A DNA stretch of 61,857 nt, counting the filler, from Hausera hauseri (taxonomy: Eukaryota): assembly GCA_046269625.1 (NCBI GenBank). It is 11 parts of 11 records of this genome, joined end to end, with 100 filler letters (N's around TTAATTAATTAA, not from the genome) between each part and the next. Parts side by side here need not be neighbours in the genome. Positions count along the whole stretch, not along the records: positions 9,940 to 17,470 come from JBJURY010008456.1; positions 17,571 to 22,956 come from JBJURY010265175.1; positions 23,057 to 28,138 come from JBJURY010341712.1; positions 28,239 to 35,230 come from JBJURY010045554.1; positions 35,331 to 39,899 come from JBJURY010524125.1; positions 40,000 to 45,797 come from JBJURY010187415.1; positions 45,898 to 50,727 come from JBJURY010421697.1; 4 more parts are not named here. One strand, written 5' to 3'. The translations under genes and the position numbers were made by a program. Below are positions 9,940 to 50,727 of this stretch, piece by piece. The notes below the pieces were generated by a model. The model saw nothing but the letters and a program-made list of their open reading frames with translations, did no database searches and was not told the origin of the DNA. Each line of letters begins with the position of its first letter. Position 1 is the first letter of the stretch.

Positions 9940-11414
9940 GCATCCGCATTCTAAAAGTTACTTCTCCCTTAGGCTCGTCGTCGTCTTCCAATAGTCCTTT
10001 GATTAGATTTGTTCCAGTTAGCTTGCTAGGGACAGCGGTAATGCCTCCATTGAGTAGGCTTATCCAGTCCGTACTGCTACGTCGAAACATAGGTTCACCT
10101 AGGCTCGTTTTGCATTCTTTCAGTATCGTTGGTTCAGTTGAGTTTGCCAATAATACTCTAGTGAGTGGCATTGCTAGTCCGGGCATGTTCTCATAGATGA
10201 CTGGTAATTCTTGCACGCATCTTTTCTCTTCTACATTGATTGGCACGTCTCTTTTTTCGCATTCGTAAGTTAGTAGAACTTCTTCAGTAACTCGTCCGAA
10301 AACACCTTCTTTCATTGGTATAATTGGAGATGCCAATTCTGGGTTGACATAAATTAAGGCCAACTTGGTTCTCACGACTTCAGTATCTAATCTGCAGTCA
10401 TTTGTTATCATTTTATGATACAGCTCTGCTATTCCGGTTTGTCCTTTATAATAGAAATAGTCGTCTCGATTTTTGAGGTAATCATCAATCCGTATGTCTT
10501 GCGTTTTCAAATCATACGCTTTCATGTTAATTTCAGTTTCTTCTACGAAAAATGCCTCATAATTTGTGGCATACATTACTACATCGCAACATGTTAACAT
10601 ATCTTTTCTAATAAACTTCAACCCATGCGTGTCCGATATCAGTATCGTCGGTGTGAAATGTTCTATCACGTCTTTCCTTGATCTCGTATTAATGTGTAAT
10701 TTATTTGTATAGCGTTTCCTAGTTGTCTCAGAATTTCAACTCTTTGATTTTAATGAATTTGCACTCCCTTTTGGAAGGTGGACTCCATACAACAACTGAA
10801 CTTCGGAACGTACAAGCGCCATCTTGTATGTGACATTTTTGATTTTCAGTAAATAGTTTGGTAACACTATGAAACATTGCTTTTAGGGGTCTTAACTCGG
10901 TTTTGTAAAAATCTACAACTACTGTTCCTCCTTCTTTTTCTTTTCCAGTATCGTATTCGGCTCCGACACAATAGCCCATGTGCATATTTAGTTTTCCGAT
11001 TTCCACTTTGTAATCTATAATGATCTTTCCTTCTTTGGCTTCTAACTCCATGCCATTCCAAACCATTTTGCCAGTCAGCCGGGCTCCTAAACAGTGTTGT
11101 CTATCCACATTCATTGGGATTAATGGTGTGGTTGGTTTGATAACTGAAGAATGTCCGTGCATATTACCACAATGAAAAACGCTGCGAAATCTCCGTATCA
11201 TACATGCCGTTGCATCCATTGCAATTAATTCCCGTTGTTGATATAATATATATCATTTTTCTATCGTCTCAAGCTTATGATGTCTTGCATATTCACATGT
11301 TTCTAAATCCATTAAGGAATATTTTTGACCTACCTTGAATTTATCACAGTCGTATGCGGTAACTGCTCCTATTTGCTTCACTAACATCATTATTGTCAGT
11401 AGGTTGATTAACTA
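9940..11414 (-). pseudogene. env: Envelope glycoprotein, chuvirus G / class III fusogen-like (A1)
   Basis: Hydrophobic signal (*LINLLTIMMLVKQIG) then AVTAYDC..YSLMDLETC, FHCG, and LALIYVNPELASP..GVFGRVTEEVLLTYEC..CVQELPV..PLTRVL. ORFs 10728-11219 and 9884-10669. Confidence 0.8.
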
Positions 11415-14400
11415 ATTCGATCCGTTTTCCTTGTTCAAGGAGATGTTCCGCATCATGTCTTCTAGTTTGTTAGTCCCTCTTGCATCTTCCTCTTTTTCAA
11501 ATAATTTAGACCCTTTTATTTCTTTGGGTACCATTTTTGCAGCTTTTTTAGCTAATCCAATTGTCTTCCCAAATTCGTTTTCTAGTAGTGGGTTGGTCCT
11601 TACTGCTAGGTATATCAAGACTTTCCTTAATTCTTCCGTCGTATTATCTATCATAATTCTATCAATTACTGTTTCGTCAGGAAGGGTACTTTTCGATAAT
11701 TTAAATCTTGGAGTCTTCATCGTCCGGACTATATTATATATCAGTCTTTTTTTCTCGGTTAATATGTCACCTTCAAGTCCGGTATAGTTGACTATCCTAA
11801 TTAAGTCTCTCATTAGCTCAATTAGTTCTTCGTTGTCTGAACTCGGTGTCGGCATTGATAATTGTCTCAATTCTCTAATCAAGTCTGCATTATAATCAAT
11901 TTCTTTTATTTTCCTTGGTCTTCCAACAGTTCGTTTCGGTTTTACTGGTGGTAAAGTTTCGCTTAACGGAACTAAATTTATATCGTATTGAGGTTTGTTG
12001 TCATCGGTCTGTAAGTATTCAAAGTACATCACTGCATCTTGAATCCCCATAATTTTTATAACACAATGTTCTGTATGCGCATTTCTTATGGCTTCGTCCT
12101 TGGTTTGCTCACTAGTAATTATTGCTATTATTCGATTCACTTCGAGTGGTATAATCCCTACGTCTATTAAGAATTCCAGCTCATCTAGTATTTTACCCCT
12201 AAAATAGAGTTGATAATTAACTCCTTCCCTACCGATCTTATCCATTATCCGCTGCTTAATGTCTAAAACGATGGTATAGGTAGTGCATTCGAATTCCTCG
12301 TCATTCATTTCTTCAGACCATACTTTAACTTTAATTTCTGCTTCCGGTTTATTTTTCAATAGTTTAGCGTACTCTTTTATTAAGCGCTTCGGCGCGGCGC
12401 TGTATGCGATGTTCTCGCTGGACAACTTAGTCAAGGTTGACATCAATTTCCTTAACTTATCTTCGCTTATGTTTATTTTCAACACACTGCTTAGTTCCTT
12501 TTCAGCTAGTGTGGGATCAAGCAACATTTGTACGTCAAATTTCGACTTATGTGTATCAGTGGGTAACTCGTAAATTTGTATTGGAGTTTTTTGACTTTGC
12601 TCGGTTAGACCTTGGAGATATTCGTCCCATTCGGCTTCATTTTCTGCGTCAGGTAACTCGTAATTCAGTAGCGCTGCATGTCCGACCTGAACTCTTTCGC
12701 GTAATTTTCTTATCTGCGGTTCTAAATCCGGTATTCTAAATCCGTCTCCATTTCCGCATGCTTGTTGTATCAGTGTTATTAATCGGCACATTTCTTCTAG
12801 TTGCATCAAGGCTTTCTTTCGATAACTAGTTATTTCTGCGATTATATCTCTTTGCCATCTCTGTATAAATTCCGTTTTGTCGTTCATTTCGGATTCTGTA
12901 AGGAAATACTTATTCTTATAAACTTCTGTTTTTCTCAGTAATTCGTTTAGCTCGCATGCCTTTTCTCGGAGCGTAACCGGGTTTCTTTTACCAGACGTAT
13001 TTGATTTGTTAGTTGTTTGGCGATTACTTCGTCGATTTCTGCCATTTCTGTTAGTAATAAGATTAATTTGTGCATTTGATTCAATACTTCCACGTCTGGA
13101 TCTATTGCGTCCATTAACCTGCCTATGAACTTGGCTTTGTCAGCCGTCAGTTGAAGATCATTTCTAATCTCTTTTAATTCAGTGTGGCAGTGTAGGTCGA
13201 ACCCTGGTGTCCATTCTATTGGATTCTGTAAATGCTGTAGTGTCTGTGCCAGACAATCTGGTGGTCATTACATACTTCCAATGTTTCTATCTCTTGTACA
13301 GAGATTTCCTTTAGCGGTTTTTGTATTAGATTCTGTATTCCTCCCCAACGGATATTTACTAGGCTTTGCTGAAAATCACTTAGCTTGTTTCTTTTCTGTA
13401 GAAGTCCTTCTCATCTATCATACTATATATCTCTGTCAGCGTTGTTTGGTTTTGGTCTTCGCTCATAAATTCAAGCTCTCGAAATGATTCGAATTTAATT
13501 TGTAATTTCGCTTCATCTTCCATTGTACCGATGTCTAGTAGCATTTCCTCCAATTGATGTCTCATTATAGGCTCAACCACAGCAAACTTCTTTAGTCGTT
13601 CGTTAATCACTTCGGCTATAGAAGGTAACAAGTCTACCCACTTTTTCCAATTGTTTACATATTACTGGTTTAGCGTATATAGTTTCGTCTAAAGCATCAA
13701 AAGCTTCTTTTAGTTCATGATCTGGTCCTCGTATAAATTCTAGGATTTGTTTCATGTAGTTGAATTCTTCTTTATACTCACCTAATTCGAGAAGACAGGC
13801 ACGTATTATTCTCTGTACTTCTACCTTTTCGAGGTGAACTATACCGATCTTTAAGTCGTTAATTTTGGCTCCTATTCCATCTTCTCTTCCAATACGTGTT
13901 TTTAAACCTGGGTATTTTCGAGGTTTATCCTTTATTAAGCTGCACATTTCTAATAAAAAGAAAATATTGATTTGGTCTATACTCAGTATCTCTAGGTCGG
14001 TATCAGTCAGTTCGTATACTGGCTTGTTATGGAGGTGAGAAATTATTCCTTCTTCCATCCCATGCATCATTCCTTCTAAATTACGTCTGATGCGTTTTAA
14101 TTTTGGGTTGTTAATAAGTGTATTCTACAACCCTTCTGCCTGATTAACCTGATAAAGAAACGATCCATTTTTATTCCACCATATTTTCGTAAAATCCATC
14201 CCACTCTTTGTCCACAGTTCTAATATATTCTGCCAATTTTCTGTCAAGTCTTGCGTTATTGCTTGCAGTTCGTAAGGTGTGCCTTCTTCTTTCTTCTGAG
14301 AACCGGGTTTAAGATTTTTATATAGCTTTTCTATAAATTGTTGCTCCTTTCCAGAGATGTCCACTTGTTTACTCATCTGTTAAAGTTTCTGTAAGCTTTC

Positions 14401-15170
14401 CTGTAGCCTTTCAGGATCATCCAGTGTATCTCTTATTTTAGTTAGTTCGCTTGAATTTTTCCAAGATTTTAATTTTCCCGAACTTTATAGATTTTTCCGC
14501 TTTTGAGTTCTCTCCGCTAGCTGGTAACGGACATATTTCATTAATTTCATCAATATTAGGAATATTTGTTGTTTCCGGAATGTCTTGAGTTATTACAGGA
14601 GTGTTTAACTCTGTTTCATCTCTTAAAGTGATAGTGAAATCTTCCTCCTTTTCTACATCCTTTTTAATAGGTGATCGTGAACGAGTTCTCGATCTTCTCC
14701 TAAGAGCGGGGCTTCTACCTCTATTCTTGGTTATCTTGAGTATTAATGGCCAAATAAATTCACTCTCAACTTCGTCCGTTGTTTTGTCTTTATTAACGCG
14801 ACATGATTTCGGTATCTGCATCCAAGTCTATACTTGAAGACGTAGTCGGTTTTTCTTCTTTCTCCTCTTTCGTTGCTTGATTTAGATTTTTCTTCCTGGT
14901 CATGTTAGTAGGTGCTATCGCCTTTTCGTATTCCGTTTTTGGTTCTCTTAACCCGTGATAAACTTCCATTTGGTGCATCTTTTCTTCGTATTCCTTTCTG
15001 GCCTTGATAACTTGTGAATTATTAAAATCACCCTAATTTTTCACATATCTTCGTAGATCTTGCATCTCGGTAATCATGCTTATATCACCACGTTTTCCAT
15101 AGATTCCTTCCAAATTATCTCTTGTCGTGCTAGCTTTACTAGTTTCTGCAAATAATACAATCCGTGGGTT
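11415..15170 (-). pseudogene. Region X (A1): helical/coiled-coil protein with RS tract, ubiquitin-like domain and AT-hook, in the position normally held by pol
   Basis: ORFs 14793-14978, 14438-14821, 14125-14376, 13603-14070, 13380-13631 and 11412-12887 align with A2 and A3; no protease D(S/T)G, RT YxDD or integrase DDE motif seen. Confidence 0.8.
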
Positions 15171-16410
15171 AGGGCATAACCTAGTTATGTGTCTTTCCTT
15201 ACCACATAAATAAAAAATTAGGTTTCTGTCTCGTCCAATCCTTTGTCGTCCATCTTCATTCACTGGTGATTTGGGTCTACCTATTGTTTTATTTTGAGCT
15301 TGCTTATCAATTCCTTTATTTTTATTTTCAAAACTCCGATTATCTATATACCGGTTCTTATTGCCTCGGTCATTATTTAGGTTTCTATCCAGATTATAAC
15401 CGGTTTTGTTATAAGAATTATAAGTATTCCGATTATCATTCCTATTATCATACCTCGTGCTGCAATTAGAGACATTTGGAGCTATATCCTCATAGCCTCG
15501 GTCCTTATTATTATCGTTAAATTTTCTGTTGTTTTGGTTTCTATCACGATTGTCACGATCATTATTTCGGTCGTATCTATCGCTTTGTTTAGCGTATCTA
15601 TCTAGTGCCATTTCCAAGTTTTGTGCTATTTGTAATGCAGTCTCGAAGTTGTTTGGTCGAGCCAAAATTAGTTGTTTAACTAAATCTCTGGACATATACC
15701 GTTTATTAACTGCGTTGTCATCATGACATCTAAATCTGGTGGGCTCGCCTTTTCTGCCGCTTTGTGTTCTGCGTCTGTCTTTGCCTTTGCCGCATTGGCT
15801 ATCCTTAACGTACTCACGTAACTATTAGCAAGTTTCTTTAGTGCGAATGCAAACTGAGTGACCGACTCACCTTTTTGTTGCGTTCTATTCTGAAAGGCCA
15901 TAAGCTTCTGTTGTGGCGTCACCGTCGGCAATAGTTTACGATTTAGGGCTCCTACTACAGAGGACCATGATTTCTTCTCATCATTAGTAAGTTCACTATA
16001 GGCATCTGCAGCCAAATTTTTCAAGTATAATGACAGTCGTTTAATCATAACCTCGGGCGCAAGATTGACACCTTCTGCGTGCAATTTATAGGTTCTTAAA
16101 AAGTCGTTTAACCAGTCAGGGTCACTGTCGTATGCCGGTAAATTCAAGGAATCGAACGTAAATATGTCGAGTTTTTGAGATATGGCTGGGTTCTCTGCTG
16201 TCATCTTTATTTTTTTCGGTTTGTCTACTTTAATTCTGGGAGGAGTTTTAATTGTTTAACGGAGGTTAATTCAGTGTCAGATAAACAGTGCTTATCGATT
16301 ATCTTATCTTCAGTATAGAGCTTATTTCGTGTTTCTCTTTGATTAAGTTTCTCTTTACCGTTTACTAATAAATTTTGATACGAATTGAACCTATCAATAT
16401 TTGCTCTCAA
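15171..16410 (-). pseudogene. gag: Ty3/Gypsy-type Gag (A1)
   Basis: LPAYDSDPD..LYLKNLAADAYSEL..FQNRTQQKGESVTQFAFALKKLA (major-homology-region-like), N/D/R-rich linker, degenerate knuckle FYLCGKERHITRLC. Confidence 0.85.
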
Positions 16411-16562
16411 TTTGATTTTTACTTACTCCCTTCCTAACCACTTATAATCCCACGTTTAAACTCTTAACTTATATCGTATAACAATTATTTGGTGTAAGTG
16501 GCGCTATTCGCCGGAATGTCTTTAATTAACTCTCAAGAGTAATGTCTAGCGAGGCACAAATT

Positions 16563-16580
16563 GTCCTGCTAGGGTCGCCA
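16563..16580 (-). promoter_or_regulatory. Primer-binding site, tRNA-Arg-like
   Basis: Minus strand reads TGTAACA-TATT-TGGCGACCCTAGCAGGAC, complementary to a tRNA-Arg-like 3' end (..GTCCTGC..GGTCGCCA). Confidence 0.75.
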
Positions 16581-16584
16581 AATA

Positions 16585-17274
16585 TGTTACAGTTGCGGTG
16601 GCCCTTACCTTCTCCCACTATAACAATATTTTCTCTAGAATTAATTTGCTGTATCAGCAGGTTAGGACTATTCGTTCTCGAATAGTCTGCTTGTGCCTTA
16701 AGATTTTAACTAAATTTATGTAGTGATGCTGGTACTGCTTGCGATAAAACTGCGTGTCTCAATTTGTAATATCTCAACTTAACTATGCGATTTTAAGTAG
16801 ATTTTGCTCTTATGGTAGTCAAATCGTCTTTAAGAGACGATGAAAAATTATATAGGGATTTTAACAAACAATCAACTAAAAGTGGCCTTTATTCGATACA
16901 CCAATTAACACAATGATTCCTCTCGACAAGAACAACTCACGAATAATAACGTCAATAGTAAGTTGCAATCTTCTGACTCTAAGGTCAGTTTCGACGTTGA
17001 TATCGCTTTATTGGGAATTCAGCTTGTCCGACTCTAAGTCGTACACTAATTTTGTCTGTCTATTTCTTTTTGTCGTCTGCTTATATACTAGCAGTTTCTT
17101 CAATACCCTATTTATTTTCAATTTGAATTCAATTTCTTAAGCTAATATAATATTTACGTATAACTAAAATCCAATTTCTTAGATTATAGCACTGCTTCGA
17201 CAGTTTATTTGTTTTCCAAATGGTCAAATTTTCTGTTTAATCTAATTCTACTAGAATAACAGTTCTACTGTACA
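16585..17274 (-). repeat. Putative 5' LTR of A1 (about 690 bp)
   Basis: Imperfect terminal inverted repeats (minus strand TGTACAGTAG ... CAACTGTAACA), TATATAA near 17085, AATAAA near 17010 and 16890, ends 4 nt before the PBS. No second LTR is available to confirm the far boundary. Confidence 0.55.
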
Positions 17275-17570
17275 ATTATTTACAATGTTTGAAATTGCAA
17301 TTCTCGTAAGGAATTGGTCGGCAATTTTTCTCATAGGCAATTTGCTCACATAAATTTTGAGTATACACATGAATGGTCGTAAAATATAGCCGAACATTAG
17401 ATGTATAAATTTTATTTCGACAAAATTAAAAATTCCTACAGGCAGTGTGGGAGACTTGAACCTGTGCGAANNNNNNNNNNNNNNNNNNNNNNNNNNNNNN
17501 NNNNNNNNNNNNNNTTAATTAATTAANNNNNNNNNNNNNNNNNNNNNNNNNNNNNNNNNNNNNNNNNNNN

Positions 17571-18930
17571 GTTTTCCTCATTAGGTGTTGCAAGTGATAT
17601 AAATGCCATTTTTCGTCTTTTTCGTCCAAAATTTGAAGTTGTTTTGGCCAGTACCCCTTTGATGATCTTAAAAATGGCGGTGCTTTCCACCATACCTGAT
17701 GATTCTCGAGATTAGTTATTGGCATGTTTCTACTTAGGACATTTGCTGGATTTTGTGACGTACGGACATGGCCCCATTTACTGCATTTATTTTCCTCTTG
17801 GATAAAACTGATTCTAGCGATAAATATTTTACAACACTTCTCGTGCTGTCGGATCTAATATAACATCAAGACTATCTGACCAAAACAACACGGCTTTTAT
17901 TTCTATTTCGAGAGCAGCCGTAACCTTTTTACCCAACTTTATTCCAACCACGGCTTTCATGAGTTTAAATCGTGGTAGTGAGATTACCTTGATCGGAGTT
18001 ACTTTCCCTTTGGACGCTACAGGTGTTGGTTTTACTTTTCCATTATAATCTTCAAAATTGTACGCCATCGCCGCGTATACATCCTTAGACGCATCACTGA
18101 ATACATGGATCCTTGACGTTCTTCCTTGATTTGTCATTACGCGATTTAGTTTTATTTTATTCAGATAGCTTTATTCCTTCATCCATTCATTCGCTTTGTC
18201 ATTTAGTACTTTTGGTAATGGATTGTTCAAATCTATTCCGAGCATCCATTTATCATGAATTAAAATTTCGCCCACCACTGTATAACACTCTATAATGCCT
18301 AACGGATCAAATATCTTTGCCACCGAACCCAACAATTTTTTCTTGGTTAATGTATTTTTATTGTATTCCTTAGCATCAAAACTACAAACATCCACATCTG
18401 TTTACCATCGAATACAATTAGTCTATATGTCTTGATTTTCTTCAGTTAATCTATGACTATTAATTTTCTTCATCTGGCATAATTCCTTATAATATCTGAA
18501 TTAAAAATGCACTTTTTTGCCTTCATCCTCGCTTGCTTCCACGACCATTATAAATCATTATATAGTTTGACTGCTCTTTCTTCATTTTCAACCGTCGATA
18601 GACTGTTATCCATGTACGTGGATTTCGGAACAACTTCAGCTGCTGCTGGCACGGTATTTCGGTGTTTTCAGAATTTACCCTGCAAGTAAGTTGTACTACA
18701 AACAGCAATGCATTTAATCTAAAGACAAGTCGTTGGAATTCGAATTTTTGTTCCTTTTCATTCTTCCAGAAAAACCGTAAGTTTTTTCGATCAAATTTCC
18801 TTACTTCGATTTGAAGGAACATCTCAGCCATGTCGCACATCATAGTTATCTTGTGCCGTCTAAATTTCAACAAGATACCGATTCGATCTTGTTGTAGTTT
18901 TGGTTCTGCACTAATCATGTCGTTCAAACA
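17571..18930 (-). pseudogene. pol: BEL/Pao LTR retrotransposon pol fragment (RT and RNase H/peptidase A17 region)
   Basis: ILLKFRRHKITMMCDMAEMFLQI..LRFFW, TKKKLLGSVAKIFDPLG, HVFSDASKDVYAA, SKGKVTPIKVISLPR, FWSDS, WWKAPPFL. Confidence 0.9.
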
Positions 18931-18939
18931 TTCGCCTTA

Positions 18940-27178: not shown

Positions 27179-27214
27179 AATGAAGTAGTCAATTTTCAAT
27201 ATTTATATTCTGCA

Positions 27215-28533: not shown

Positions 28534-30505
28534 CTAAGGCTCGTCTTCATCGGAGTTATCTCTTTGCGTTACTATTTTTTTAGTTTTTCGTTTTAATAGA
28601 AATGTGGGCCTTGCTCGTCGTTTATAATTATGATAGCCGACGTGTCGTTTAACGTCATTCTTCCACTGATTTTCTTCGTATGCTTTAAGCCTTTTGCCGA
28701 ACGGGGTTATAATTTCAGTTGAAATCTTGCATGAAAATCCTGTTAACGTGAATATTTTGTACCTGTTTATAACCGCTTGGATTACCGCCTTTACTAGTTG
28801 TACCAAGAAATAGATTTCTAAAAATTCAGATGCAACTTGTCCAAAGATTAGAAATCTTCCCCATATTTTGTAGAGTATTTCTGTGGTTACCCGTTGATAA
28901 TGGTTCGCACGAAGCAGGGACTCCCATTTAGCCTGGTAACGGGTATCATCTACTACTGATGTCATAGCTCGGTTTAACTCGTGTTCGCTGGCGTGGAAAA
29001 GCGAGAAATTGTCGAAAGGCTTTGATTTCTTTGGGCCTGTAAATGCCCTTTTGGGATGTATCCTGAAACTTGTCATGAGTAATTCCTTTTGCTAAATTAG
29101 TTCCAGTTAGTTTTTTAGGAAAGGTAGTGATATCTCCATTAGGTAAGCTAACCCAATCCGTTTCGCTGCACCTAAACATGGGTTCACCTATGCTTGCCTT
29201 ACAATCCTTTAAGATTGTAGGTTGTGTTGCGTTATCTAACAATACTCTAGTGAGGGAAATGGCTAACTGTGGAGTATTCTGGTAGATTACAGGAAGCTCT
29301 TGTATACATCGTTTTTCTTCGACATTAATTGGTACGTCTCTTTTCTCGCACTCATATGTCAGTAGAACTTCGCCAGTGACTCGGCCAAAGATTCCTTCTC
29401 TCATGGGAATAATCGGTGAGGCTAACTCAGGATTGGCGTAAATAAGGGCTCATTTTGTCCTCGTAATCTCCATATCTAATTTACAATAATTAGTTATTAT
29501 TTTATGGTATAGCTCGGATATTTGGACTTGTCCTTTGTAGTAGAAATAATCATCTCGGTTTTTCAGTTAATTCTCAATTAGAATGTCCTGCGTTTCTAAG
29601 TTATGTGTTTTCGCGTTTATCTCCGTTTCTGTGACGAAGAACGCTTCATAGTTAGTGGTGAACATTATTACTTCGCAACGTGAAATCATTTCTTTTTTTA
29701 TGAATTTCAATCCATGTTGATCAGAGATCAATATCGTAGGTGTATGATGCTCCGATACGTTTTCACGTGCTCTTAAACTGATATCAGATTTGTCTACGTA
29801 TCTTTTCCCGGTAGTTTTATTAAACTTCAATTCCTTAATCTTGAAAAAATTACATCTCTTTCCAGCGGGCGGTTCCCATATGATGACAGAACTTCTGAAA
29901 GCACAGGTTCCGTCCTGTACGTGACATTTTTGATTCTCGGTATACAGCTTAGTGACGCTATGGAACATCACTTTCTGGACTCGCATTTTCGATTCGTAAA
30001 AGTCTACTACTACTACGTTTGCTTTTAATCCTTTTCCGGTATCATATTCTGCTCCACTACAGTGCCCGTTATGCATATCTAGCCTACCAACTACTATCTT
30101 GTATGCTCTGATTATCTTTCCGGGCTGCATTTCTAGTTCCATACTATCCCATTTCAGTCTTCCGATTTCTCACGCCTGCTTGCAATTTTGTCTTTTCAAA
30201 TTTATTGGAATTGGAGGGGTTGTTGGTTTGATTACTGAGGAATGTCCATGCATTAATCCATAGTGGAAAATACTACGAAATCGTCTCTGCATACACTACA
30301 TGCCGTCCAAGGATATCAGTTCTTGTTGTTGATATAGAAAATAACTCTTCTCCTTTGTTTCCAATTTATGTGGTCTGGCATCTTCACATGCTTCTAAGTC
30401 CATTAATGAATATTTTTGTCCAAGCTTAAATCTATTGCGGTCGTAGATGGTGGCAGCGCCCATTTGTTTTATCAGCATCATTATGATGAGCAAACTAATT
30501 AACCA
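28534..30505 (-). pseudogene. env: Envelope glycoprotein, chuvirus G-like (A2), most complete copy
   Basis: Signal WLISLLIIMMLIKQMGA, YSLMDLEAC, GIFGRVTGEVLLTYEC..CIQELPV, C-terminal membrane region IWGRFLIFGQVASEFLEIYFLVQLVKAVIQAVIN and a basic tail. Confidence 0.82.
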
Positions 30506-33500
30506 ATTAGATTTATTCTTCCGGTTGTTATTATCCGCTATTGTTAAATTCCGTATGATATCTCTGAGTCCATTATTATTACGGTTCTTTTTGTCTTCTT
30601 CCTTGTCAAACAATTTTGGCCAATTTACTTCACATGAAAGCTTCCTATCTGCTTTTCGTGCCAAGCTTGTAGCTCGATTTAGTTCATCCTCTCAATTAGG
30701 ATTCGTCTTAATAGCCAAGTATAATAATATTTTTCTTAGCTCTTCTGTCGTATTCTCTACCATAATTTTCTCGACTACTGCGTCGTCAGTTAGGCTACAT
30801 ATTGACAGTTTAAAAAGCGAACTTCTTATTGTTCTAGCTACGTTAAATATAGTCTTTTCTTTCTCATCTAATGTACCTCCCCGAAGACTTGAATAATTTA
30901 CGATACGTATTAAATTTTTCATTAATTCGTTTAACTCCTCATTGTCTGTGCTAAAGGTAGAAATCGACATTTGTCTCAGTTCTCTAATTAATTCTCCGTT
31001 ATAGTCAACTTCTTTCCGGGCCTTCCTAGGCCTGCCGACAGGGCGTTTTGGCCTTGACACATTGGTCGTATTTCCGCTCCAAGGCACTAAATTTTTATCG
31101 CATTGTTCCTTGTCTTCATCTGTCTGTAAATACTCGAAAAACATTGCCGCATCTCGTACTCCCATGATTTTCCCTACGCATTGTTCTGTTTTAGCCTTTC
31201 GCGTGGCTTCTTCTTTTGTCTGTTCACTGGCTATTATTACTACTATCCGATTTGTTTCGTCGGGGATGATTCCGTCATCTATTAACTGTTCTAAATCGTC
31301 AAGTATTCTTCCTCTATAGTAAAATCTGTAATTAAGCTCATTTGTTCCGCCGTTGTTTAGTAATTATTCTCTTACGTCCTTTACGTAGGAATAAATAGTT
31401 AGCTCACATTCCTTTTCTTCTATCCACTCGGATGATACCATTACTTTCATCGTTATCTCAGGTTTATCCCTCAAGATTTTCTCATACTTCTTCATCAACA
31501 GTTTCGGCACCGTGCTGTAAATTGTGCTTTCACTAGATAGTTTAGTCAAGGTCAGAATAAGTTGTCTTAGCTTATTTTCAGAAATATTTACGTTAATTAG
31601 TTCAGTCAATTCCTTTTCAGTTAGCACTGAGTCCAGGAGCATTTCTATGTTGAATTTGCTGTTCTGTGGATACATTTATATTTTATTTAAATTTACCGGA
31701 GTTACAGGATTTTCTGCCGTTATTGCTTCTAAATAAGCATCCCATTCTGGTTCATTCCCAATATCTGGGAGTCCATAGTCTACTAGAGCTGTGTTCGTCC
31801 TTTGCACATTTTCTCGAATTTCTCTTAATTTTGGTTGTATTTCTTTCATTTGTGTACTCCGTAAACCTATCCCGTTTCCACAGGCATACTGAAATATTTT
31901 CAGTAGTTCGCCTAATTCACTAGAATTGATGAATCCCTTCTGGTGATAGTCGGTTAGTTCGATAATAAAGTCTCTTTGCCAAGGCTGCACGAATTCTAGC
32001 TTATTTTTGATTTCTGATTCCGTAAAAGCGTATTTATTCCCGTAGGCCTCAAACTTTTTTGCCAGTTCGTCTAGCTTCGTTGCTCTTTATTTCGTTCTGA
32101 TGCACGTTTCTTCAACTTGTACTAATTTGAGCATCAATTGCCTCATCTTCTCATCATTAATCTCCACCATTTCTATCAATAAGTAGGCTGGCCCATACAT
32201 CTCATTTATAATTTTTGAGTCGGGATCCATTGCGTCCAGCAGTTTCTTAACGAATCTAGATTCCTCGACACTAAGACGTTGGTTGTTTCTTATTTTTGTC
32301 AATTCGGTGTGACAATTCTCATCTGTACCGGCCATCCATTCTAGGTGTTTATGCAAGAATTTTACTGCTTCTGTTAGGGCTACTCTATTTTCTTCACAAA
32401 TATCTAAAGTTTCGATGTCCTGGATTGAAATCTCGTTGATAGGTTTGTCCATTAAATGTTGGATTCCTTCTCGTCGGATGCTTCTTAACCTTGAGTAAAA
32501 ATTGCAAGTCATATTTCGCTTTTCTGTAAAGTTCGTTTCTTCGATCATTTTATAGATTTTTCCAATATTGTCATTTCTTGCTTCTTCTTCATAAAATTTA
32601 ATCGTCATAATGCTTCGAACAGTGTCCAGATGTCTATTTCTGCTTGTATGGTGTTTAAGTTACGTGCACCTTCTTCTAATTGTCTTTTTACAGATGGTTC
32701 ACTCTCTGGAAATTCTTTCTTATAGTCTTCTACTAACTTGCTTAACCTCGTTATTAGTTCAGACCATTCTGACAATTGATTGGCAACTATTGGCTTTGCG
32801 AGTATTGCTTTATCTAGCATTTTATATGCATCTTTTAACTCATCATCTGGACCTTTTATGAAATTCATGATTTGGATAACATAATTGAATTTATCCTTAT
32901 ATTCGTCGAATTCTCTGATACAAGCTTTTATTATATATTTGGTTTCTTCGTTAATCATAAACATGATTCGATTTCTTAAACTGTTGATCTGCGATCTTCT
33001 TTTATTCGCCAATTTAATGCAACTATCTAAGTCCGTATATCGTCTGGGTTCGGCGAAAGCAATTTTTATCATCTCCATTAAGGGAGGAATATCTATCGCG
33101 TCTATACCCAATATTGCTAAATCGTTATCTTTTCGAATACTAACCACTTTTTCTCTAAGCTGTTTGATCACTGCATTACGGATTTCATCCATTTTACGTT
33201 CTAAGTTACGGGCTACTCTCTTCAACTTGGGATTAGCCTCTAAGATAGATAATAGTGTTTGCGCTTCAGAGACTTTTACACCGATACTATCCTCATCTTT
33301 ACCCCATCCTTATGAAAATTCAACTCCACTTTTAATCCATGACTCTAATTCGTGGTTCCATTTGATCAACGTATCTCGCGGCACCTCTTCAGATTGTTTT
33401 AGCTCGATTGCTTCATCGAGCTTTCCTTCGCTGCATAATTTTAAACTCTTGTATAATTTCTCCGCACATTTTTGTTCTTTACCGGATATATCTGTTTGTT

Positions 33501-34299
33501 TACTGATCTGATTAAGCCTTTCTAAATGGCATCGGAGTATCTCTGGATCGTGTCATCTAATTCTTATTCTCTTTAATTCATCGGCATTCGTCCATGAACG
33601 TCGAACTTTCCATTTTCTCGCATCAAGATCGTTATTGTCGTCCGTTTCTTCCTCGGAAGCGGACAAATTTCATTGATTTAGTCATTAATGTTTATTATAT
33701 CTGGTGTTTCCAACGTTTCTAGGTTTTTTTTAGGCGTAACAGTCGTCTCTAAGGACGAGTGGTCTTTTAGGATAGCAGTATAGAAGTCTTCTTTTTCTTC
33801 CACGTGTTCTTTAATGGGAGATCTTGAGCGAGTCTTGGATTTTCTCTTAGGCGATGGGCTTTTACCTCTATTCTTCGTTATCTTGAGAACTAAATGACCA
33901 ATAAATTCACTTTTGATCTCATCTGTTGTTTCATCTGGGTTGTACTTTTCGGATTCTGCGTCTAAATCTACGTTTTGAGATGTCGTTGGTTTCTCTGACT
34001 AGGTTATTCCTTGGGGAATAGACTTTTTACGTGCCATATTAGCATTATTTGGTTCCAGTGTGTATTCTTCCTCAGTTTGTGGTTCTCTTAATCCGTGATA
34101 GACTTCCATTAGCCGTAATTTCTCTTCATATTCTTTTCTAGTCTTTGTGACTTGAGGATTAGCAGTTTCACCTAGATTCCTTACCGATCTACGTAGATCT
34201 TGCATTTCAAGGATCATGTTTATATTACCTCGTTTACCATAGATGACTAAGTTATTTTTAATCATACTTATTTTGTTCGGTTCAGTAAATGTGACGCTT
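30506..34299 (-). pseudogene. Region X (A2)
   Basis: ORFs 32605-33225, 32087-32608, 31676-31990, 31364-31675 and 30692-31165 are homologous to A1/A3; AT-hook RPVGRPRK present. Confidence 0.8.
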
Positions 34300-35230: not shown

Positions 35231-35330
35231 NNNNNNNNNNNNNNNNNNNNNNNNNNNNNNNNNNNNNNNNNNNNTTAATTAATTAANNNNNNNNNNNNNN
35301 NNNNNNNNNNNNNNNNNNNNNNNNNNNNNN

Positions 35331-39899: not shown

Positions 39900-39999
39900 N
39901 NNNNNNNNNNNNNNNNNNNNNNNNNNNNNNNNNNNNNNNNNNNTTAATTAATTAANNNNNNNNNNNNNNNNNNNNNNNNNNNNNNNNNNNNNNNNNNNN

Positions 40000-40628
40000 C
40001 ATATTACGACTGAGCTCCTAAAAGCACACGTTCCATCTTGTATATGACATTTCTGGTTCTCGGTATATAATTTTGTGACGCTATGGAACATCACTTTTTG
40101 TGATCGCATTTCTGCTTCATAGAAATCCACAACCACGACGTTCGATTCTAGTCCTTTTCCGGTATCGTATTCTGCTCCATTACAATGCCCGCTATGCATA
40201 TCCAGCCTCCCGGCTACTACTTTATATGCTCTGATTATTTTTTCGGGTTTCATCTCCAGTTGCATACTATCCCATTGTATCCTTCCGGTTTCCTTAGCTT
40301 GTTTGCAATGTTGACGCTCCAAATTCATCGGAATTAAAGGAGTGGTGGGCTATATTATGGAAGAGTGCCCATGTATTAGTCCACAGTGAAAAATACTGCG
40401 TGACCGTTTTAGCATGCACTCTATTCCATCTAACGACACCAATTCTTGTTGTTGATACAGGAAGTAATTTTTTTCTCGTGTTTCTAGTTTGTGCGGTCTC
40501 GCGTCCTCACAGGCTTCTAAGTCCATTAAGGAATATCTCTGTCCTAATTTAAACTTGTCACAATCATAGACGGTTACTGCACTTATGTGTTTTATTAGCA
40601 TCATCAATGTAAGTAAGCTAATTAGCCA
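40000..40628 (-). pseudogene. env: Envelope glycoprotein N-terminal part (A3)
   Basis: WLISLLTLMMLIKHISAVTVYDC..YSLMDLEAC..CMLKRSRSIFHCG, in the same ORF (40350-41540) as the end of region X. Confidence 0.82.
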
Positions 40629-43600
40629 ATTCGATTCGTTTTTTCGACCTCCAACGTCTGACACTGTCAGATTACGCAGCATATCATCGAGTTTATTACT
40701 GGTTCGTTTGTCCTCTTCCTTCTCAAATAGTCTTGCCCAATTTACTTCGCAAGGCATCTTTCTTGCTGCTTTCCGTGCTAAATTTATTGCTCGGTTAATT
40801 TCAGTTTCTCGGTTTGGGTTTATTTTGATGGCTAAGTACAGCAAGACTTTTCTCAATTCTTCATTCGTGTTCTCTACCATGATCTTTTCTATTACTGACT
40901 CATCGGTTAAGTTACTTTTTGATAGTTTGAAACGTGAACTTTTCATCATTTTGGCTGCCTCAAAAATTATCTTTTCTCTATCGTCTAATACATCTCCTCG
41001 AAGGCCGGAGTAATTTACAATTCGTATTAAATTCTTCATTAATTCACTTAATTTTTCGTTATCTGGGCTCAAAGTCGGAATCGACATCTGTCTTAATTCT
41101 CTCATTAATTCCCCGTTGTAGGCCACTTCTTCCCGCATTTTTCTAGGTCTACCTACTGGACGTTTTGATCTTGCGCCTTTCGGGGTTGCTTCGCTTAGCG
41201 GTACTAAATTTATGTCATATTGTTCCTTATTTTCGTCTGTTTGTAAATATTCGAAATATAATGCAGCGTCTCGGACTCCCATGATTTGTCCGACACATTG
41301 TTCTGCTTTAGCCTTACGTGTAGCTTCCTCTTTTGTCTGCTCGTTAGCTATTGTAACTACTATTCGGTTTGTTTCATCAGGAATAATCCCAACATCTATT
41401 AATTGTTCTAGGTCATCGAGTATTCTACCTCTAAAGTAAAATCTATAGTTTAACTCCTTCGTTCCACCATTGTTTGTTAGCCATTCTCTTACGTCCTTTA
41501 CGTAAGCATGTGTAGTCAACTTGCACTCTTTTTCGTCCATCTATTCGGATGACACCATAACTTTCATCGTCATCTCAGGTTTAGTCCTTAAGATTTTAGC
41601 ATACTCCCTTATCAAAAGTTTCGGCACCGTACTATAAATCGTATTTTCGTTGGATAATTTAGTTAAAGTTGGAACAAGTTGTCGTAGTTTATTCTCGGTA
41701 ATATTTACGTTAAGTAATTCCATCAAATTCTTTTCATTTAAAGCTGAATCTAGTATCATTTCCACATTAAATCTCTTGTCTTTGGTACCTGTTTCTGATT
41801 CGTTTAGCTGTATTGGAGTCGTGGGTTTTCCGGCAAGTATTTCGTCAAAGTAGGCATCCCATTCTGGTTCGTTTCCGACATCCGGAAGTCGGTAGTCCGC
41901 TAAAGCTGTATTGGTCCTTTGAACGTTTTCCCGAAATTCCCTTAACTTAGGTTGTATTTCTTTCATTTTCGTAGTTCGGAATCCTACTCCATTACCACAG
42001 GCATATTGAATCATCTTCAATAATTCACCGAATTCGTTAGAGTCGATTACCCCTTTTTGATGATAATCTGTTAATTCAAGAATCACATCCTTTTGCCATC
42101 TTTGTACAAATTCTCGTTTATTCCTAATTTCGGACTCGGTGAAAGCATATTTGTTTGGTAGACTTCAAGTTCTTTTGTTATTTCGTCTAACCTTATTGCT
42201 CTTTGCTTCGTTTTGATACATGTTTCTTCTACTTTCTGTATCTTGTGCATCAATTTCCTCATCTGCTCGTCACTGATTTCCGCCATTTCCGTCAATAAAT
42301 ATGCCAATTCATACATCTCATTTATAACCTTTGAATCAGGGTCCATCGCATCCGACAACTTCTTCACGAATTTGTGTTCCTGAAAACTAAAATGTGGGTC
42401 GTTTCCTATTTCTATCAACTTGGTGTGGAAATTCTGATCTGATCCGGCCATCCATTCTTGAGGTTGGTGTAGAAACCTTAGCGCATCCGTTAACATATCT
42501 CGGTATCCTGGACAAATGTCCAAGGTTTCCATGTCTTGTGCAGAAATTTCGTCGATTGGTTTCCCGATTAGGTATTGAATTCCTTCTAATCGAACAATCC
42601 TTAACTTCGAGTTTACCTCGTAGATCATATTCCGTTTCTCTGTAAAGTTCGTTTCTTCGATCAATTTATAGATTACCTCCATCGTTGATATTTCCCGTTC
42701 TCTTTCCATGAATTTTAGTTGTCGTAATGCTTCAAATTGAGTTCGGATATCTATTTCTATTCGCAACGTAGCTAAATTATGTGCACTTTCCTCTAGTTGC
42801 TTTTTCACCGTTGGATCGCTTTGCGGAAATTCCGCTTTTCGATCATCTGCTAATTTGGTTAGTTGGTTTACTAGCTCGGACCATTCCGACAATTGATTTG
42901 TTATTAGGGGTTTCGCCATTATAGCTTTATCTAGTATCTTATAGGCATATTTTAACTCATCGTCCGGTACTTTTAAGAAATTCATAACTCGTCCGATATA
43001 GCTAAATTCGTCCTTGTATTCGTCCAACTCTACGATACAAGCCTTTATTATATATTGAGTCTCCTCATAAATTGGGGACAGAATTCGGTTCCTCAAGCTA
43101 TAAATTTGTGCTCGCTTTTCGGTTTCTATCTTCAGCCGATTTTCCAAGTTTGTACCTTGTTTGGGCGTGGCAAATGCAATTTTTATCATTTCCATTCGGA
43201 AAGGAATATCCAACGGGTCTATACCCAATACTTCCAGGTCGATATTACTGCGATGGTTAACCGGTTTTTCCCTAAGTCGTTGGGTTATTGTGTATCGGAT
43301 TTCGTCCATCATACGTTCTAAATTACGGACTACTCTCTTCAGTTTTGAATTCTCCTCCAACGTTGATAATAACGTTTGAGCCTTGGCGGTTGTTACGTTT
43401 ATACCCTCTTTATTTTTACTCCATCCTTCTAAAATTCCCATCCCGCTCTTAGTCCACAATTCCAATTCATGTTTCCATCTAGATAATATTTCCGGGGACA
43501 CTTTTTCAGGTTGCCTCACATCGATTGCTTCAGCGAACTTCCCTTCGCTACGTAATTTCAAGCTTTTATGTAACTTCTCGGCGTACTGCTGCTCTTTTTC

Positions 43601-44430
43601 CGATATATCGACTTGTTCTGCAATCTGCTTGAGCTTCTCTAAATTCTGCTGTAATGCTTCGGGCTCTAAACAATAGATTCTCATTTTCTTTAATTTGTCG
43701 GAGTTTTTCATGAGAGTCGGATCTTCCTTTTTTTATTTGAAATTATCATTGTCGGCCGTTTCTTCCTCACTAGTGGGCAGTGGGCAAATCTCATTAATTT
43801 CCTCAATTAACTCTATTGGTTCCGCTATTTCAATAGGTGTGTATGGACCAACTTGTGGCGTATGTAGACTATGCTCCATGTCGTCTTTTTTTGACATTCG
43901 GGTTTCCCGTTTCTTCCGTTTTCTCTTTGCTTATCTGGGAGCGTAAACGACTTTTACGTTTGGTTTTTAGTAAAGGGCTACGACCTCTATTTTTCGTAAT
44001 CTTAAGTATTAATGGTTCCATAAATTCCCTTTCCGCTGTATCGTCCTCTACCCTCTTGACTGGAAGTTTGGGTTCTGCGTCTAGATCGATTTGCTTCGAT
44101 ATGCCTGGTTCATCTGGCGGCTTGTTACTTGTCGGAATATTCTTTTTCCGTATCATATCGCTTCACTTTAGTGCTATTTCATGTTCGTATTCCGACTCTG
44201 GTTCCACTAAACCATGATATACCTCTAACAATCTCAACTTGTCTCCATATTCTCTTCTGGCCATTAGAATTTGTGTGTTCGTAGTATCTGGTTGAGCATC
44301 CAAAAATTTTCTCAAATCCTGTATATCGATGATGGTGGCTGTATCTCCGCGAACGCCATACTTTGTTTCTAAGTTCTCGTTATTTCTAATCATACTTGTC
44401 TTATTTGGTTCAATAAATGAAACGCTACGC
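40629..44430 (-). pseudogene. Region X (A3), with ubiquitin-like domain and AT-hook
   Basis: 542-aa, 181-aa and 396-aa ORFs; YRFYFRGRILDDLEQLIDVGI; RPVGRPRK. Confidence 0.82.
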
Positions 44431-45797
44431 GGATTTGGACATGACCTTGAAATGTGTCCTTCTTTGCCGCAAGTAAAACAAATCAAATTCCCGTTCCTGC
44501 CGACTCTCTGTCGACCGTCTTCATTTTCTGGTGACTTAGGTGTATTTAAACTTTTATTAAACTAATTTGACAAACTTTGCATATTGTCGGCATTTCGTTT
44601 GTTGTCGTTACTTCGGTTATCACCGATTTGATTCGAGTACGTCGAACTTCTATAATTTCCTCTATTCCTATCCCAATTTGGGTCTGGCCTGTTCGTATAA
44701 TTATTACCTCTGTAGCTGTCATTATTATTCCTATACCCATAATTTCTGTTGCCCATAAATCGTCTGTCGTCTCGTCTTTCCTCTCTTCTGTCATTCTTTC
44801 CATGATTGTCATTGCGATTTCTATCATTACGGTCATTTCGCTCATTATTCCTATCGTTTCTGTCATTGTGTCTGGCGTATTTATTCAACGCCATTTCTAA
44901 ATCTTGGGCTAGCCGTAACGTCCCTTCAAAATTTTCAAGTCTAGCCAGAATTAATTGTTTAACTAAGTTACGTGACCGGATACCATTTATCAGTTGCGTC
45001 GTCATCATAACATCTAGATCTGGTGGTGAGACCTTCTCTGCGGCGTCACGTTCTGCCTCCGTCTTAGCTTTAGCTACATTGGCTATCCTTAGCGTACAAA
45101 TATAACTGTTCGCAAGCTTCTTCAACGCAAATGCGAACTGGGTTACCGATTCACCTTTTTGCTGTATTCGGTTCTGAAATGCCATGAGTATTTGTTGCGG
45201 TGTCACTGTCGGCAACAGTTTTCTATTTAGTGCTCCTACCAGGGAGGACCAAGATTTCTTCTCGTCATTAGAGAGTTCACTATAGGCATCGGCGACTAAA
45301 TTTTTCAAGTACAACGACAATCGTTTAATCATTAGTTCCGGAGTTAAACCAGCGCTTTCTGCATGCAATTTATAAGTCCTCAGAAATTCGTTGAGCCCAT
45401 CTGGGTCTCCGTCGTATGCCGGCAGGTTAAGAGAATCAAACGTGAAAATGTCCAGTTTCTGTGCTACTGGTGGATTATCTGCTGCCATATTATTTACTTT
45501 ATCTAACTCTATATTTGCTTTATTCACCTTAAGTTTTTCCCGTGGAGTTTTAAATTTGTTATCGTTTTTAACGTCGTCTAGTTTACTTCTATTCTCGGAA
45601 TTCGATCGTTTATCTACTTTTTCTGTTTCTCTATATATATTTCTACGTGTCTCACGTATAGGGGAATTATCTTTCAGTATATGGTTTAATCCTGGTCTAT
45701 CAATGATTGTTCTCGGTTACGTTTGTTTTACTTATCCTCGTTCAATGATCTTATATCCCGATAGATTTAAGTTTTCAATATGTGTTCAATTACTTGG
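44431..45797 (-). pseudogene. gag: Gypsy-type Gag (A3) with intact CCHC knuckle
   Basis: 321-aa ORF with FQNRIQQKGESVTQFAFALKKLA; after one in-frame stop, CFTCGKEGHISRSC. Confidence 0.88.
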
Positions 45798-45897
45798 NNN
45801 NNNNNNNNNNNNNNNNNNNNNNNNNNNNNNNNNNNNNNNNNTTAATTAATTAANNNNNNNNNNNNNNNNNNNNNNNNNNNNNNNNNNNNNNNNNNNN

Positions 45898-47820: not shown

Positions 47821-47834
47821 TGGCGCCCCAACAA
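47821..47834 (+). promoter_or_regulatory. Primer-binding site, tRNA-Lys-like
   Basis: TATT-TGGCGCCCCAACA; same TATT spacer as A1; TGGCGCCC is the start of Lys-type PBSs. Confidence 0.6.
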
Positions 47835-48192
47835 ATCAAGGAAGGCGGATTTTACAAGCAGTTTATAAATTCATATGAATTTGGATTTTATCAAAGAAAT
47901 ATTTTATCAAAACGATATTATTTCATTCACTTCTTAGGCTATTCATTCGGCTTTAAAAAGAAAGCAGTATATGACACAGTATTAAACAAGCTTGATAGTA
48001 GACAGAGAGAGATTACAAAACAATTAACAAGATTTGAAAGGATTCCAGAAGATAAAATTGTAGTTTGGATTAAAGAATAATATTACTACATTAAAAATTT
48101 GGACTCGACAATCAGATAAGAAATTTACCAAATTATTTCCCGAGTTAGACGACAATATTCTTAATAAAATACTCTTATTAGAAAGAGCCAAA

Positions 48193-49145
48193 ATGTCAAC
48201 AGAAAGACAGACAACTGAAAAACGAACCTATACTATTGAGCATTTAGACATAAATGTAGAGAGATTCAACGGAAACCCAGAGAAATTGTTTTCCTTTTTC
48301 AAAAGTTACAAATCTCAAAGTGCAGCAAAAGGCCTTGATGAAAAGGAAATGATCAGAAGATTACCCTTATCATTAACAGATATAGCTGTCGATGCATACA
48401 ATGACCTCACAAATGATTCAAACAGCCTTTATCGATCGATTTTATCCCACATTGTCTCCACATCAACAGTTGATTAAACTTCAAAACAGGTATCAGTTAT
48501 ACGGTGAAAGTACGACCCAGTACGCTTACGCTCTAAGACAAATTGTGGCTCAATACGTCGAAGCAGTACGCTTAGAAGCTCTAAAGAAGAAAAACTGATG
48601 AAAAAGAATTAAAAACAGACATTTTGTTACTTACACAATTCCTAAATGGACTTAATCCTGACTTACGATATAAAGTGCAGGCTAAATATCGTAGCGATTT
48701 TGTTGACGCATTAAAAGCTCCTCAAATGATCGAGTCATTTACGCCTTTAAAAAGACCGAGAAATACAGATCGCAATTTCGACAATGAATCACGAAGAAGT
48801 GACAATCGACGAAATGAACGTTTCGAAAGTGATTATCGCTTTAATAACCGGCAGAATGACCGAAGAAATCGGGATAATATAGAAATAGATTACGATCGAG
48901 ATGATTACCGACGACGATATGATAAACCAGATTCAATGAATTTTACTGAGAAACAAACGAATGTAAAACAAGACAGTTATTGCCATACGAAAAGAGTAAC
49001 TCTCCTCCAACCGAACACAGAGTTCGATTTGCTCAAGAAACACCGTATCAAAAAGATGGACGACAAGAAATAACTAAAACAGGCAAAATGGTAACTTGTT
49101 ACCGATGTAATAAAATGGGACATTATGCTAGTTCATGCCAAGAGC
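48193..49145 (+). pseudogene. gag: Gypsy-type Gag (subfamily B)
   Basis: ERFNGNPEKL..EMIRRLPLSLTDIAVDAYNDL, LQNRYQLYGESTTQYAYALRQ, LLTQFLNGL, CYRCNKMGHYASSC. Confidence 0.85.
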
Positions 49146-50560
49146 CATCGAAATCAATGGAGAAAAAGTCTAGCGCTGCAATGCATAAAGTTAAAACTGA
49201 TGATACCACAGAGGATTTCTTGCAAAGAGTTTCTGAGTTGACCTCGGAAGAAAGAAACCTTACAGCTAGCGCTCTCAGAAAAATGGATTCAGATATTGAC
49301 CAAATTCTTAGACGATTCAATGTACATACAAGCAATAGTTTTTCAAAATATTACTGCCATGGCATATTTGATGATATAAATAAAAATGTACCCTTAGCTA
49401 AACCTGCTCAGGCTAAGGCCATTACTAAATTAATAATTATAGAAGCAAGAACAGAAGCAAAGAATAGGTTCATTCTCGGTGAACCACTACCAGAAGTTGA
49501 TGAATTCATGCTTGAATGTTTTCCAATAGATCCAAATGTGGCTGTATGTACACAGAATAAAGGATCTGCAAATAAGAAACCAGAAAAAAAGAAAAAGGAA
49601 TATAAATTTTCAGGCTATAAAATACCTAAGAAAAAACCAGAAAAAAACTGAAATCATCTATCACCAGTTGGGATATTAAATATGGACAAATTCATACAAA
49701 ACATGAAGTACCAAAAGAATTAATTCCATCCACCTCAAAACAAGAGGAACCACCAGTTACCAAACCGACAATTCAGGTTGAGAAAAAATACCAAGATGTA
49801 GCTAAAGAAACATTGAAGCAAATGCAACCAAAGATTAGAGAACAGATACAAAAAGATCTGGCGAAAACAAACCAAGGAAAAATCCCTAAAGGACTAGAGT
49901 TATCCAAGTTAATAAACACTTACATAGAAAAGGACTGCATAAGTAAAATGAATGAAAACGACAAAGAAAAATTGATCAAAGAAATTTATAGATTACGTGA
50001 AAACGACTTTGTACCCGAACCTAGATATCTATTAGAAGTTGAAAAACAAGAAAAGATTAATAAGCAAATAAGAAGTTAAGAAGTTAGAGAAATTTATTAT
50101 ATAGATATTGGAAAGGATTCGATCACTCCCCGATCTCCAAAATGGAAGAAATGAGTTAAGGAACAGCGGAAATTTATGAAGAATCTTAAGAAAAATTCAG
50201 TGGAAAACTTCACAATTGACGATATTGTACAATTAATATTAAAAAAGCCATCTCGCATAAATTTCGAAAAGGTGATATTGCTTCTAATATCTGAGACACC
50301 TAATGAAGCTAATTTAAAGGCCACAACTGATAAAATAATTCATGCTAGTAAAACGATAATTCCGCAATATGGAAAATGGAGTGACCTATTTCTACGCAAC
50401 GAAAACGAAAAATTACTCGAAACAACCAACAAATATAGAAAAAGCTATTCAAGAAATTACTTTAAATGCATCTCATGACGAGATTGTTCCCATTATTATG
50501 GAGAAAATGACTAGTCAATTACAAGAAGAAATTCAGAAAAGTGATGGTGTAAAGTCCAAT
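49146..50560 (+). pseudogene. Region X of subfamily B (about 470 codons)
   Basis: ORFs 48980-49651, 49813-50079, 50176-50478 and 50369-50668; distal part resembles the end of subfamily A region X. Confidence 0.65.
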
Positions 50561-50727
50561 GGAATATTTATGCAACTTATGTTACTTTTATTAGTGTTAT
50601 TTTCCAATTTTAAAAGGACCGGAACAATATTAGCTTATGATTGCAATCAAATATATGAAGGAAGTTAATACTCATTGATGGATCTTCAATCATGCCCGGA
50701 CGCTCCTCAGAGAAAATTAGAGACTCA
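50561..50727 (+). pseudogene. env: Envelope glycoprotein start (subfamily B)
   Basis: GIFMQLMLLLLVLFSNFKRTGTILAYDCNQIYEGS*YSLMDLQSCPDAPQRKLET versus A3 TVYDCDKFKLGQRYSLMDLEACEDARPHKLET. Confidence 0.8.

Follow-up and report, generated by a model that had tools for sequence, protein, structure and literature searches.

Introduction

In Schmidtea mediterranea, a planarian, the giant gypsy elements Burro1-4/GYPSM1, of which a Burro-like counterpart occurs in Dugesia tigrina, exhibit the published gene order gag-cargo-env-pol; their Ubi2/SUMO-like and BCL2 domains are followed by an in-frame envelope gene (env) and this, in turn, by the protease (PMC6431247, in the sections used here). According to the parts of PMC13524379 on which we draw, Chary and Hayashi describe errantiviruses of Nematoda, Bryozoa and Platyhelminthes with the order GAG-ENV-POL and a glycoprotein B (gB)-type env, their search having tolerated an ENV-POL gap of at most 2 kb; the same parts cite Sacco et al. 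2022 for nematode endogenous retroviruses in which env precedes pol. Anakin, as portrayed in excerpts of PMC7642597, comprises mosquito Pao elements with a chuvirus glycoprotein. Here, we report on a stretch of 61,857 nucleotides (“the window”) from Hausera hauseri (GCA_046269625.1), which is made up of 11 contigs of 4-7.5 kb each spliced via N spacers and harbours four copies of long terminal repeat (LTR) elements encoding Gag, a long region referred to as X and an envelope glycoprotein.

An earlier inspection of this DNA, the sequence-only reading, had started from gag-pol-env as the normal organisation of env-bearing LTR elements and had offered two options for the copies, namely a non-autonomous, pol-less family or an element with the order gag-X-env-pol. 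This premise fails for the clade concerned, whose members have pol after env, and, although the sequence-only reading knew of no described family of this kind, Burro and the GAG-ENV-POL errantiviruses share the order. The first option receives no direct support, all contigs stopping in or just after env, while homologues with protease or Pol after env support the second. In our view the copies are very probably decayed Ty3/gypsy LTR elements which encoded one polyprotein, Gag-X-Env-Pol, with Pol on the cytosolic tail of env, X as host-modulating cargo, and signal peptidase together with the protease of the element splitting the product.

Results

Domain order and reading frame of the four copies

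Three copies, A1 (9940-17470), A2 (28239-35230) and A3 (40000-45797), lie on the minus strand of separate contigs, the fourth, B (47821-50727), on the plus strand of a contig of its own. A1, A2 and A3 share 63-76% DNA identity with one another, their proteins are colinear from Gag through X to env, and they constitute one family (family A). B, the Gag pieces of which are 27-43% identical to those of family A, represents a second, distantly related family. The sense strand of the four copies contains 38-42% A. Pfam searches and alignments bear out the order claimed before: Ty3/gypsy-type Gag, CCHC knuckle, X, signal peptide and Monjiviricetes/gB-type env are found in all four copies, with about 30 env codons in B and a degenerate knuckle, devoid of its first Cys, in A1. 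The zf-CCHC match exceeds the cut-off in A2, A3 and B. Gag matches Pfam Retrotrans_gag under cut-off (E 0.0025) and, among PDB entries, best dArc2 (E 0.09); it is 38% identical to the Gag of the homologous protein P0001 (E 1e-17). A Ty3/gypsy-type Gag with a CCHC knuckle is likewise a feature of the GAG-ENV-POL errantiviruses of HSV/gB type (HSV, herpes simplex virus). The primer-binding sites (PBS) ascribed to A1 and B are recovered as PBS-like TGG sites at 16580 and 47821, both preceded by ATATT.

The frame runs uninterrupted from X into the signal peptide in A2, A3 and B; in A1 a stop is present there. Judged by eye, stops and frame changes of A1, A2 and A3 sit at differing homologous places and, therefore, their parental elements likely had a single reading frame. 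At most about 50 codons past the Gag linker each of the three shows a frame change, at three differing spots, which we read as apparent decay in a low-complexity stretch, a programmed shift being the alternative.

Pfam PF24664 matches the env of A1, A2 and A3 above cut-off; the short env of B matches that of the relatives at E 2e-8. A gB-type env with signal peptide and membrane anchor follows gag, and the canonical arrangement with pol between the two, as in GAG-POL-ENV errantiviruses and Anakin, is not observed in the window. The cysteine spacing of env is 12/11/26/41/45/7/17 compared to 12/11/25/41/45/7/16, counted by hand, in Smed_errantivirus_1. The terminal C-x6-TNY motif of the A1 and A2 env ends all six Schmidtea rows, the other 11 of 17 TNY matches being located elsewhere. 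By hand, the env was assigned to the Platyhelminthes C1a type, an assignment in which only the terminal motif separates it from the similarly spaced insect C1 rows.

Region X

X comprises 1,267 (A1), 1,266 (A2), 1,268 (A3) and 474 (B) codons, close to the previously estimated 1,250 and 470. No protease, reverse transcriptase (RT), RNase H or integrase match was found in X by Pfam, applied to the three sense frames of A1, A3 and B read through stops and to the open frames of at least 130 residues of A2, nor did a motif scan reveal any such motif in the X of the four copies; antisense frames were searched only as listed open frames. This agrees with the sequence-only reading, which had named a protease, RT or integrase inside X, or pol between gag and env, as findings that would speak against it.

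Among the family A copies pairwise comparison of X yields proportions of nonsynonymous differences (pN) of 0.14-0.37 and of synonymous differences (pS) of 0.74-0.82, that is, synonymous sites near saturation. The ratio of nonsynonymous to synonymous substitution rates (dN/dS) amounts to 0.05-0.08 for X of A3 and A2, where computable, and to 0.05 for Gag. X is under purifying selection comparable to Gag and, given the low dN/dS and a pN far below pS, was a functional protein. These data bear on the idea that chance deletions or chimeric assemblies of gag-pol-env elements gave rise to the copies. The copies, each of them decayed and located on a short contig, are what such an origin would lead one to expect. 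However, in the three family A copies, despite synonymous sites close to saturation, X corresponds over its whole extent and is equally long, A2, A3 and B read from X into env without a change of frame, and independent proteins have the same layout. Because X is shared and selected, we regard this origin, which had been disfavoured from the outset, as refuted for practical purposes.

The claim that X is unrelated to other sequences holds for part of it only. In family A the last 500 residues consist of helices, a ubiquitin-like domain, a putative AT-hook core (GRPR in A1) and a helical domain ahead of the signal peptide. The ubiquitin-like domain, which among the copies is confined to family A and for which all Pfam scores remain below cut-off, is predicted to fold in beta-beta-alpha-beta order (predicted local distance difference test score, pLDDT, 50-61); as in Burro, it lies between Gag and env. 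Helices and ubiquitin-like domain align with the Gag-bearing protein P0037 (hhalign 94.7%, E 6e-8), and a GRP hook occupies the same place in P0001, P0037 and P0044. The hhalign comparison of X with P0001 is not significant (1.1%), though the profile search aligned that region. The slot immediately before env is Bcl-2-like in relatives (P0004: Pfam E 1e-3, Bcl-xL E 0.01), and the window profile outscores shuffles for two of seven such domains; for the corresponding helical domain of the window no PDB match was obtained, and the reverse profile performs no better than shuffles.

The part for which the claim largely stands is a strongly conserved helical block, the first roughly 800 residues of family A X, which has no family match and, among 56 profile matches, a single homologue, the short P0028. 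A 549-residue stretch of X folds as helices at low confidence (pLDDT 37); for a 500-residue stretch the pLDDT was 39. Foldseek and VIA-align were uninformative, the latter reaching its best Z of 6.8 on a helix pair, and ESM Atlas returned no usable match (leads under 0.8, some of them ubiquitin-like). Neither word-index protein searches nor locus scans gave a match. The X of B resembles that of family A weakly, over the last 70 residues only (3.4%, E 0.013). An internal repeat in X, perceived by eye, was dismissed as 123 of 1,000 shuffles scored equally high.

Homologous proteins and the position of pol

A profile of the family A copies covering the end of X and env domain I (740 positions) retrieved 56 protein matches, of which 23, including all 12 of at least 900 residues, were scanned with Pfam together with one cluster mate, P0057. 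Eight of the 12 long relatives carry a protease in frame after env, to which four of them add RT, RNase H and integrase; in P0013 the protease is weak (E 0.002) with the D-T-G motif present. P0057 contains protease, RT, RNase H and integrase after env. The remaining four long relatives end in or before env, and in none of the 12 does pol precede env. In nine relatives the protease motif is situated 146-389 residues past a shared anchor residue, and eight of the nine have a hydrophobic-Y-P motif 31-90 residues ahead of the protease. Since relatives place protease and Pol in frame after env, we infer Pol to lie just beyond the contig ends of the copies.

The env tree comprises 25 rows, three from the window and 22 of 58 proteins picked by match length or label. 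A1, A2 and A3 fall into a clade of 19 rows (support 100/100) which includes all nine pol-bearing proteins, while six rows, with stand-alone glycoproteins such as that of Wenzhou crab virus 2, remain outside. P0008, the weakly supported sister of the window copies, and P0044 originate from equally long contigs and may both derive from a single element composed of Gag, ubiquitin-like cassette, env and protease.

The tail of A2

The contigs of A1, A3 and B end within env; that of A2 runs 551 bases past the membrane anchor and no copy provides DNA beyond this; no LTR pair, polypurine tract or target-site duplication is visible. That the contigs lack pol is therefore hardly informative about the complete element, and their shortness is the most likely reason. 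The A2 tail, in which no Ty3/gypsy pol domain or protease motif was found over its 551 bases, is A-rich and in this resembles the coding part. At most two stops occur in 3.9% of 2,000 random windows used to gauge its openness; a codon-usage test had no power, 46% of random windows scoring as high. The contig ends about 15 codons after L-Y-S-P, which is loosely reminiscent of the pre-protease motif of the relatives and a weak hint.

Two alternatives concern this region. In the first, pol was lost as a unit while Gag, X and env were kept under selection and copied by the Pol of a helper. Such a family would agree with the finding of pol in none of the four copies, with an A2 tail which exceeds the protease distance of seven of nine relatives, and with a 12-base purine run at the first stop of A2 past the anchor. 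On the other hand, no copy reaches a 3' LTR, all eight long relatives running well past env possess a protease, the A2 frame is nearly open to the contig end with a coding-like, A-rich composition, and no TG comes after the purine run. Furthermore, comparing the tail with what lies upstream of the two PBS gave no match, although this test is weak as the A1 and A3 leaders barely align. We consider the loss of pol unlikely. It is equally doubtful that family A shed pol and long spread as a helper-dependent enveloped retroelement whose 1,270-residue insert, about 800 residues of it almost without relatives, was retained by selection matching that on Gag in strength; if this were true, it would represent a helper-dependent enveloped retroelement in an invertebrate, of which a limited literature search, based on parts of the sources, found no example in print.

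In the second alternative pol lies 3' of env as a separate frame behind a true env stop, which amounts to a variant of the single-polyprotein arrangement. The stop in A2 110 codons past the anchor residue, the gap allowed in the published search and the termination of P0004 and P0021 soon after env are in line with it. Yet nine relatives have the protease in the same protein as env, single stops are to be expected in a decayed copy, and the PTAP motif of A2 lies beyond the stop in the same frame. A separate frame appears improbable, if slightly less so than the loss of pol.

Several observations weigh against the polyprotein Gag-X-Env-Pol. Pol is deduced from relatives and seen in none of the four copies. 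In A2, 208 codons past the anchor residue are free of a protease motif, more than the 146-194 residues separating anchor and protease in seven of nine relatives, the other two having 223 and 389; the tail has three stops in 187 codons compared to seven in 1,046 upstream. P0004 and P0021 end 62-69 residues past the anchor, and the window copies, themselves on a long branch, are joined to P0008 with weak support (84/81). The Bcl-2 link of the last helical domain appears weak, and Pfam detects no MATH, BIR/IAP or ankyrin domain, as known from Burro, in X; these may lie outside the contigs.

Other features of the window

The coordinates of all parts of the copies and of neighbouring features are compiled in Table 1.

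Table 1. Parts of the four element copies and neighbouring features, in positions of the window
Feature	Position	Strand	Basis
A1 PBS-like sequence behind TGTAACA end (likely 5' LTR end)	16563..16580	minus	sequence
A1 Gag, interrupted by frame change near 15690; capsid, N/R/D-rich linker, degenerate knuckle	15174..16203	minus	
A1 X, several stops and frame changes	11412..15173	minus	
A1 ubiquitin-like domain within X	12081..12359	minus	Pfam ubiquitin E 1.6e-4, below cut-off; PDB ubiquilin E 0.06-0.7
A1 AT-hook core GRPR	11913..11924	minus	
A1 signal peptide and env ectodomain, truncated by contig end	9940..11411	minus	
A2 Gag and knuckle, 5' part lost at contig start	34300..35230	minus	
A2 X; ubiquitin-like domain about 31220-31480; AT-hook 31025-31036	30503..34299	minus	
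A2 signal peptide, complete env ectodomain, membrane anchor (about 28790-28848)	28790..30502	minus	
A2 tail past anchor; PTAP 28447-28458; no protease motif; 3 stops in an otherwise open frame up to contig end	28239..28789	minus	
A3 Gag and intact CCHC knuckle (44439-44480)	44439..45488	minus	
A3 X, the best-preserved one; helical stretch open for 549 codons at 42086-43732	40626..44438	minus	
A3 ubiquitin-like domain within X	about 41250-41580	minus	
A3 AT-hook	41142-41153	minus	
A3 signal peptide plus env domain I, continuing the frame of X; truncated by contig end	40000..40625	minus	
B PBS-like sequence	47821..47838	plus	
B Gag and CCHC knuckle (49097-49138), broken	48193..49138	plus	
B X, no family match	49139..50563	plus	
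B signal peptide and first ~30 env codons, truncated by contig end	50564..50727	plus	
GATA zinc finger exon	3061-3270		
353-codon frame, no Pfam match	23530-24591		
ERG4/ERG24-family coding sequence, two overlapping frames	25954-26692		
120-bp satellite filling the entire contig, 60-bp subunits (71-75% matches); orientation flips near 36470 and 38694	35331-39899		
CARM1 coding stretch, ~190 unbroken codons	45898-46464		
Decayed long interspersed nuclear element (LINE), RT and zf-RVT domains	51250-55970		
Nested inverted repeats, 76-87% alike, last contig	56777-58989		

The CARM1 stretch and copy B face each other head to head, about 1.35 kb separating the former from the PBS-like site of B. 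A Gypsy unit at 21068-22954, whose sense strand is C-rich and whose tail is rich in Ser, encodes RNase H and integrase and is accompanied by decayed Pao fragments (17571-18936). CARM1, the GATA finger and the remnants of LINE, Pao and Gypsy elements mark the host as an animal-type eukaryote. As the missing pol this RT-RNase H-integrase unit is an unlikely candidate, its sense strand containing 29% A as opposed to 38-42% in the copies and its identity to the Pol of the relatives being 25-36%; it is a possible helper.

Among the homologous proteins, P0005 bears the label of a hypothetical protein from a Flavobacteriaceae metagenome-assembled genome; it is a Gypsy env-pol polyprotein and likely constitutes animal DNA in a bacterial bin. 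P0057, P0002 and P0003 each contain several protease-like copies; P0057 (4,844 residues) exhibits six D[ST]G motifs as well as ankyrin and C2H2 matches after env. P0024 combines, within one frame, a mitochondrial ribosomal protein L47 domain and the beginning of a related env.

Discussion

Proposed expression of the element

The observed domain order, the frame continuity of X and env, the selection on X and the homology to env-pol polyproteins form the starting point of the following scheme. For Pol in the copies, and for processing, budding and cargo function, it draws on the relatives and on general knowledge. Just past the contig ends the long frame of Gag, X and gB-type env would go on to encode protease, RT, RNase H and integrase, and it would be translated into a single polyprotein. 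The internal signal peptide would thread env into the endoplasmic reticulum, Gag-X being freed on the cytosolic side, and the env anchor would return the chain to the cytosol, where Pol would be synthesised attached to the env tail and then released by the protease of the element. PTAP in this tail may recruit ESCRT for budding. X would serve as accessory cargo whose AT-hook would bind DNA and whose ubiquitin-like domain would engage the host ubiquitin machinery, while the helical domain at its end is perhaps an eroded Bcl-2-like fold.

Comparison with known systems

Our finding adds two decayed families to the known gag-cargo-env-pol group, and the cassette of helices, ubiquitin-like domain and AT-hook is common to distant members of this group. 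Troyka, which lacks env in the portion of PMC12440569 used here, was rejected as kin. P0001 and P0037 share with family A the succession Gag, CCHC, helices, ubiquitin-like domain, AT-hook, helical domain and env, and P0003, P0005, P0008 and P0057 have env followed by protease or full Pol. The env of these six proteins and of P0044 is 28-36% identical to that of the window. They differ by a shorter X (219-725 residues from the first knuckle to env in five proteins) and by the absence of the long helical block of family A, and several retain a GGW Bcl-2 motif which is missing from the window copies.

Anakin, judged by the excerpts at hand, likewise is an LTR element with a captured glycoprotein of the same broad family. 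Its backbone, however, is of the BEL/Pao type, whereas the window has a Ty3/gypsy-type Gag and env behind Gag-X. Smed_errantivirus_1-6 (group C1a) resemble the copies in a Ty3/gypsy Gag before a gB-type env and, by eye and motif only, in cysteine spacing and C-x6-TNY. In contrast, the elements of PMC13524379 are intact and possess pol, and the parts of that paper used here describe no cargo between gag and env. The two longest regions in its supplement, Smed_5 and Smed_6 with 16.9 and 18.0 kb, may contain a comparable insert. With Burro as published, the copies have in common Gag, CCHC, a long cargo with a ubiquitin/SUMO-like domain and, in the same frame, an env of mononegavirus-like type, gag and env not being separated by pol. 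Compared to that description, there is one knuckle instead of Burro's two or three, Bcl-2 is only weakly suggested, X is without a Pfam match to MATH, BIR or ankyrin, and pol as well as the giant size are not visible on the contigs.

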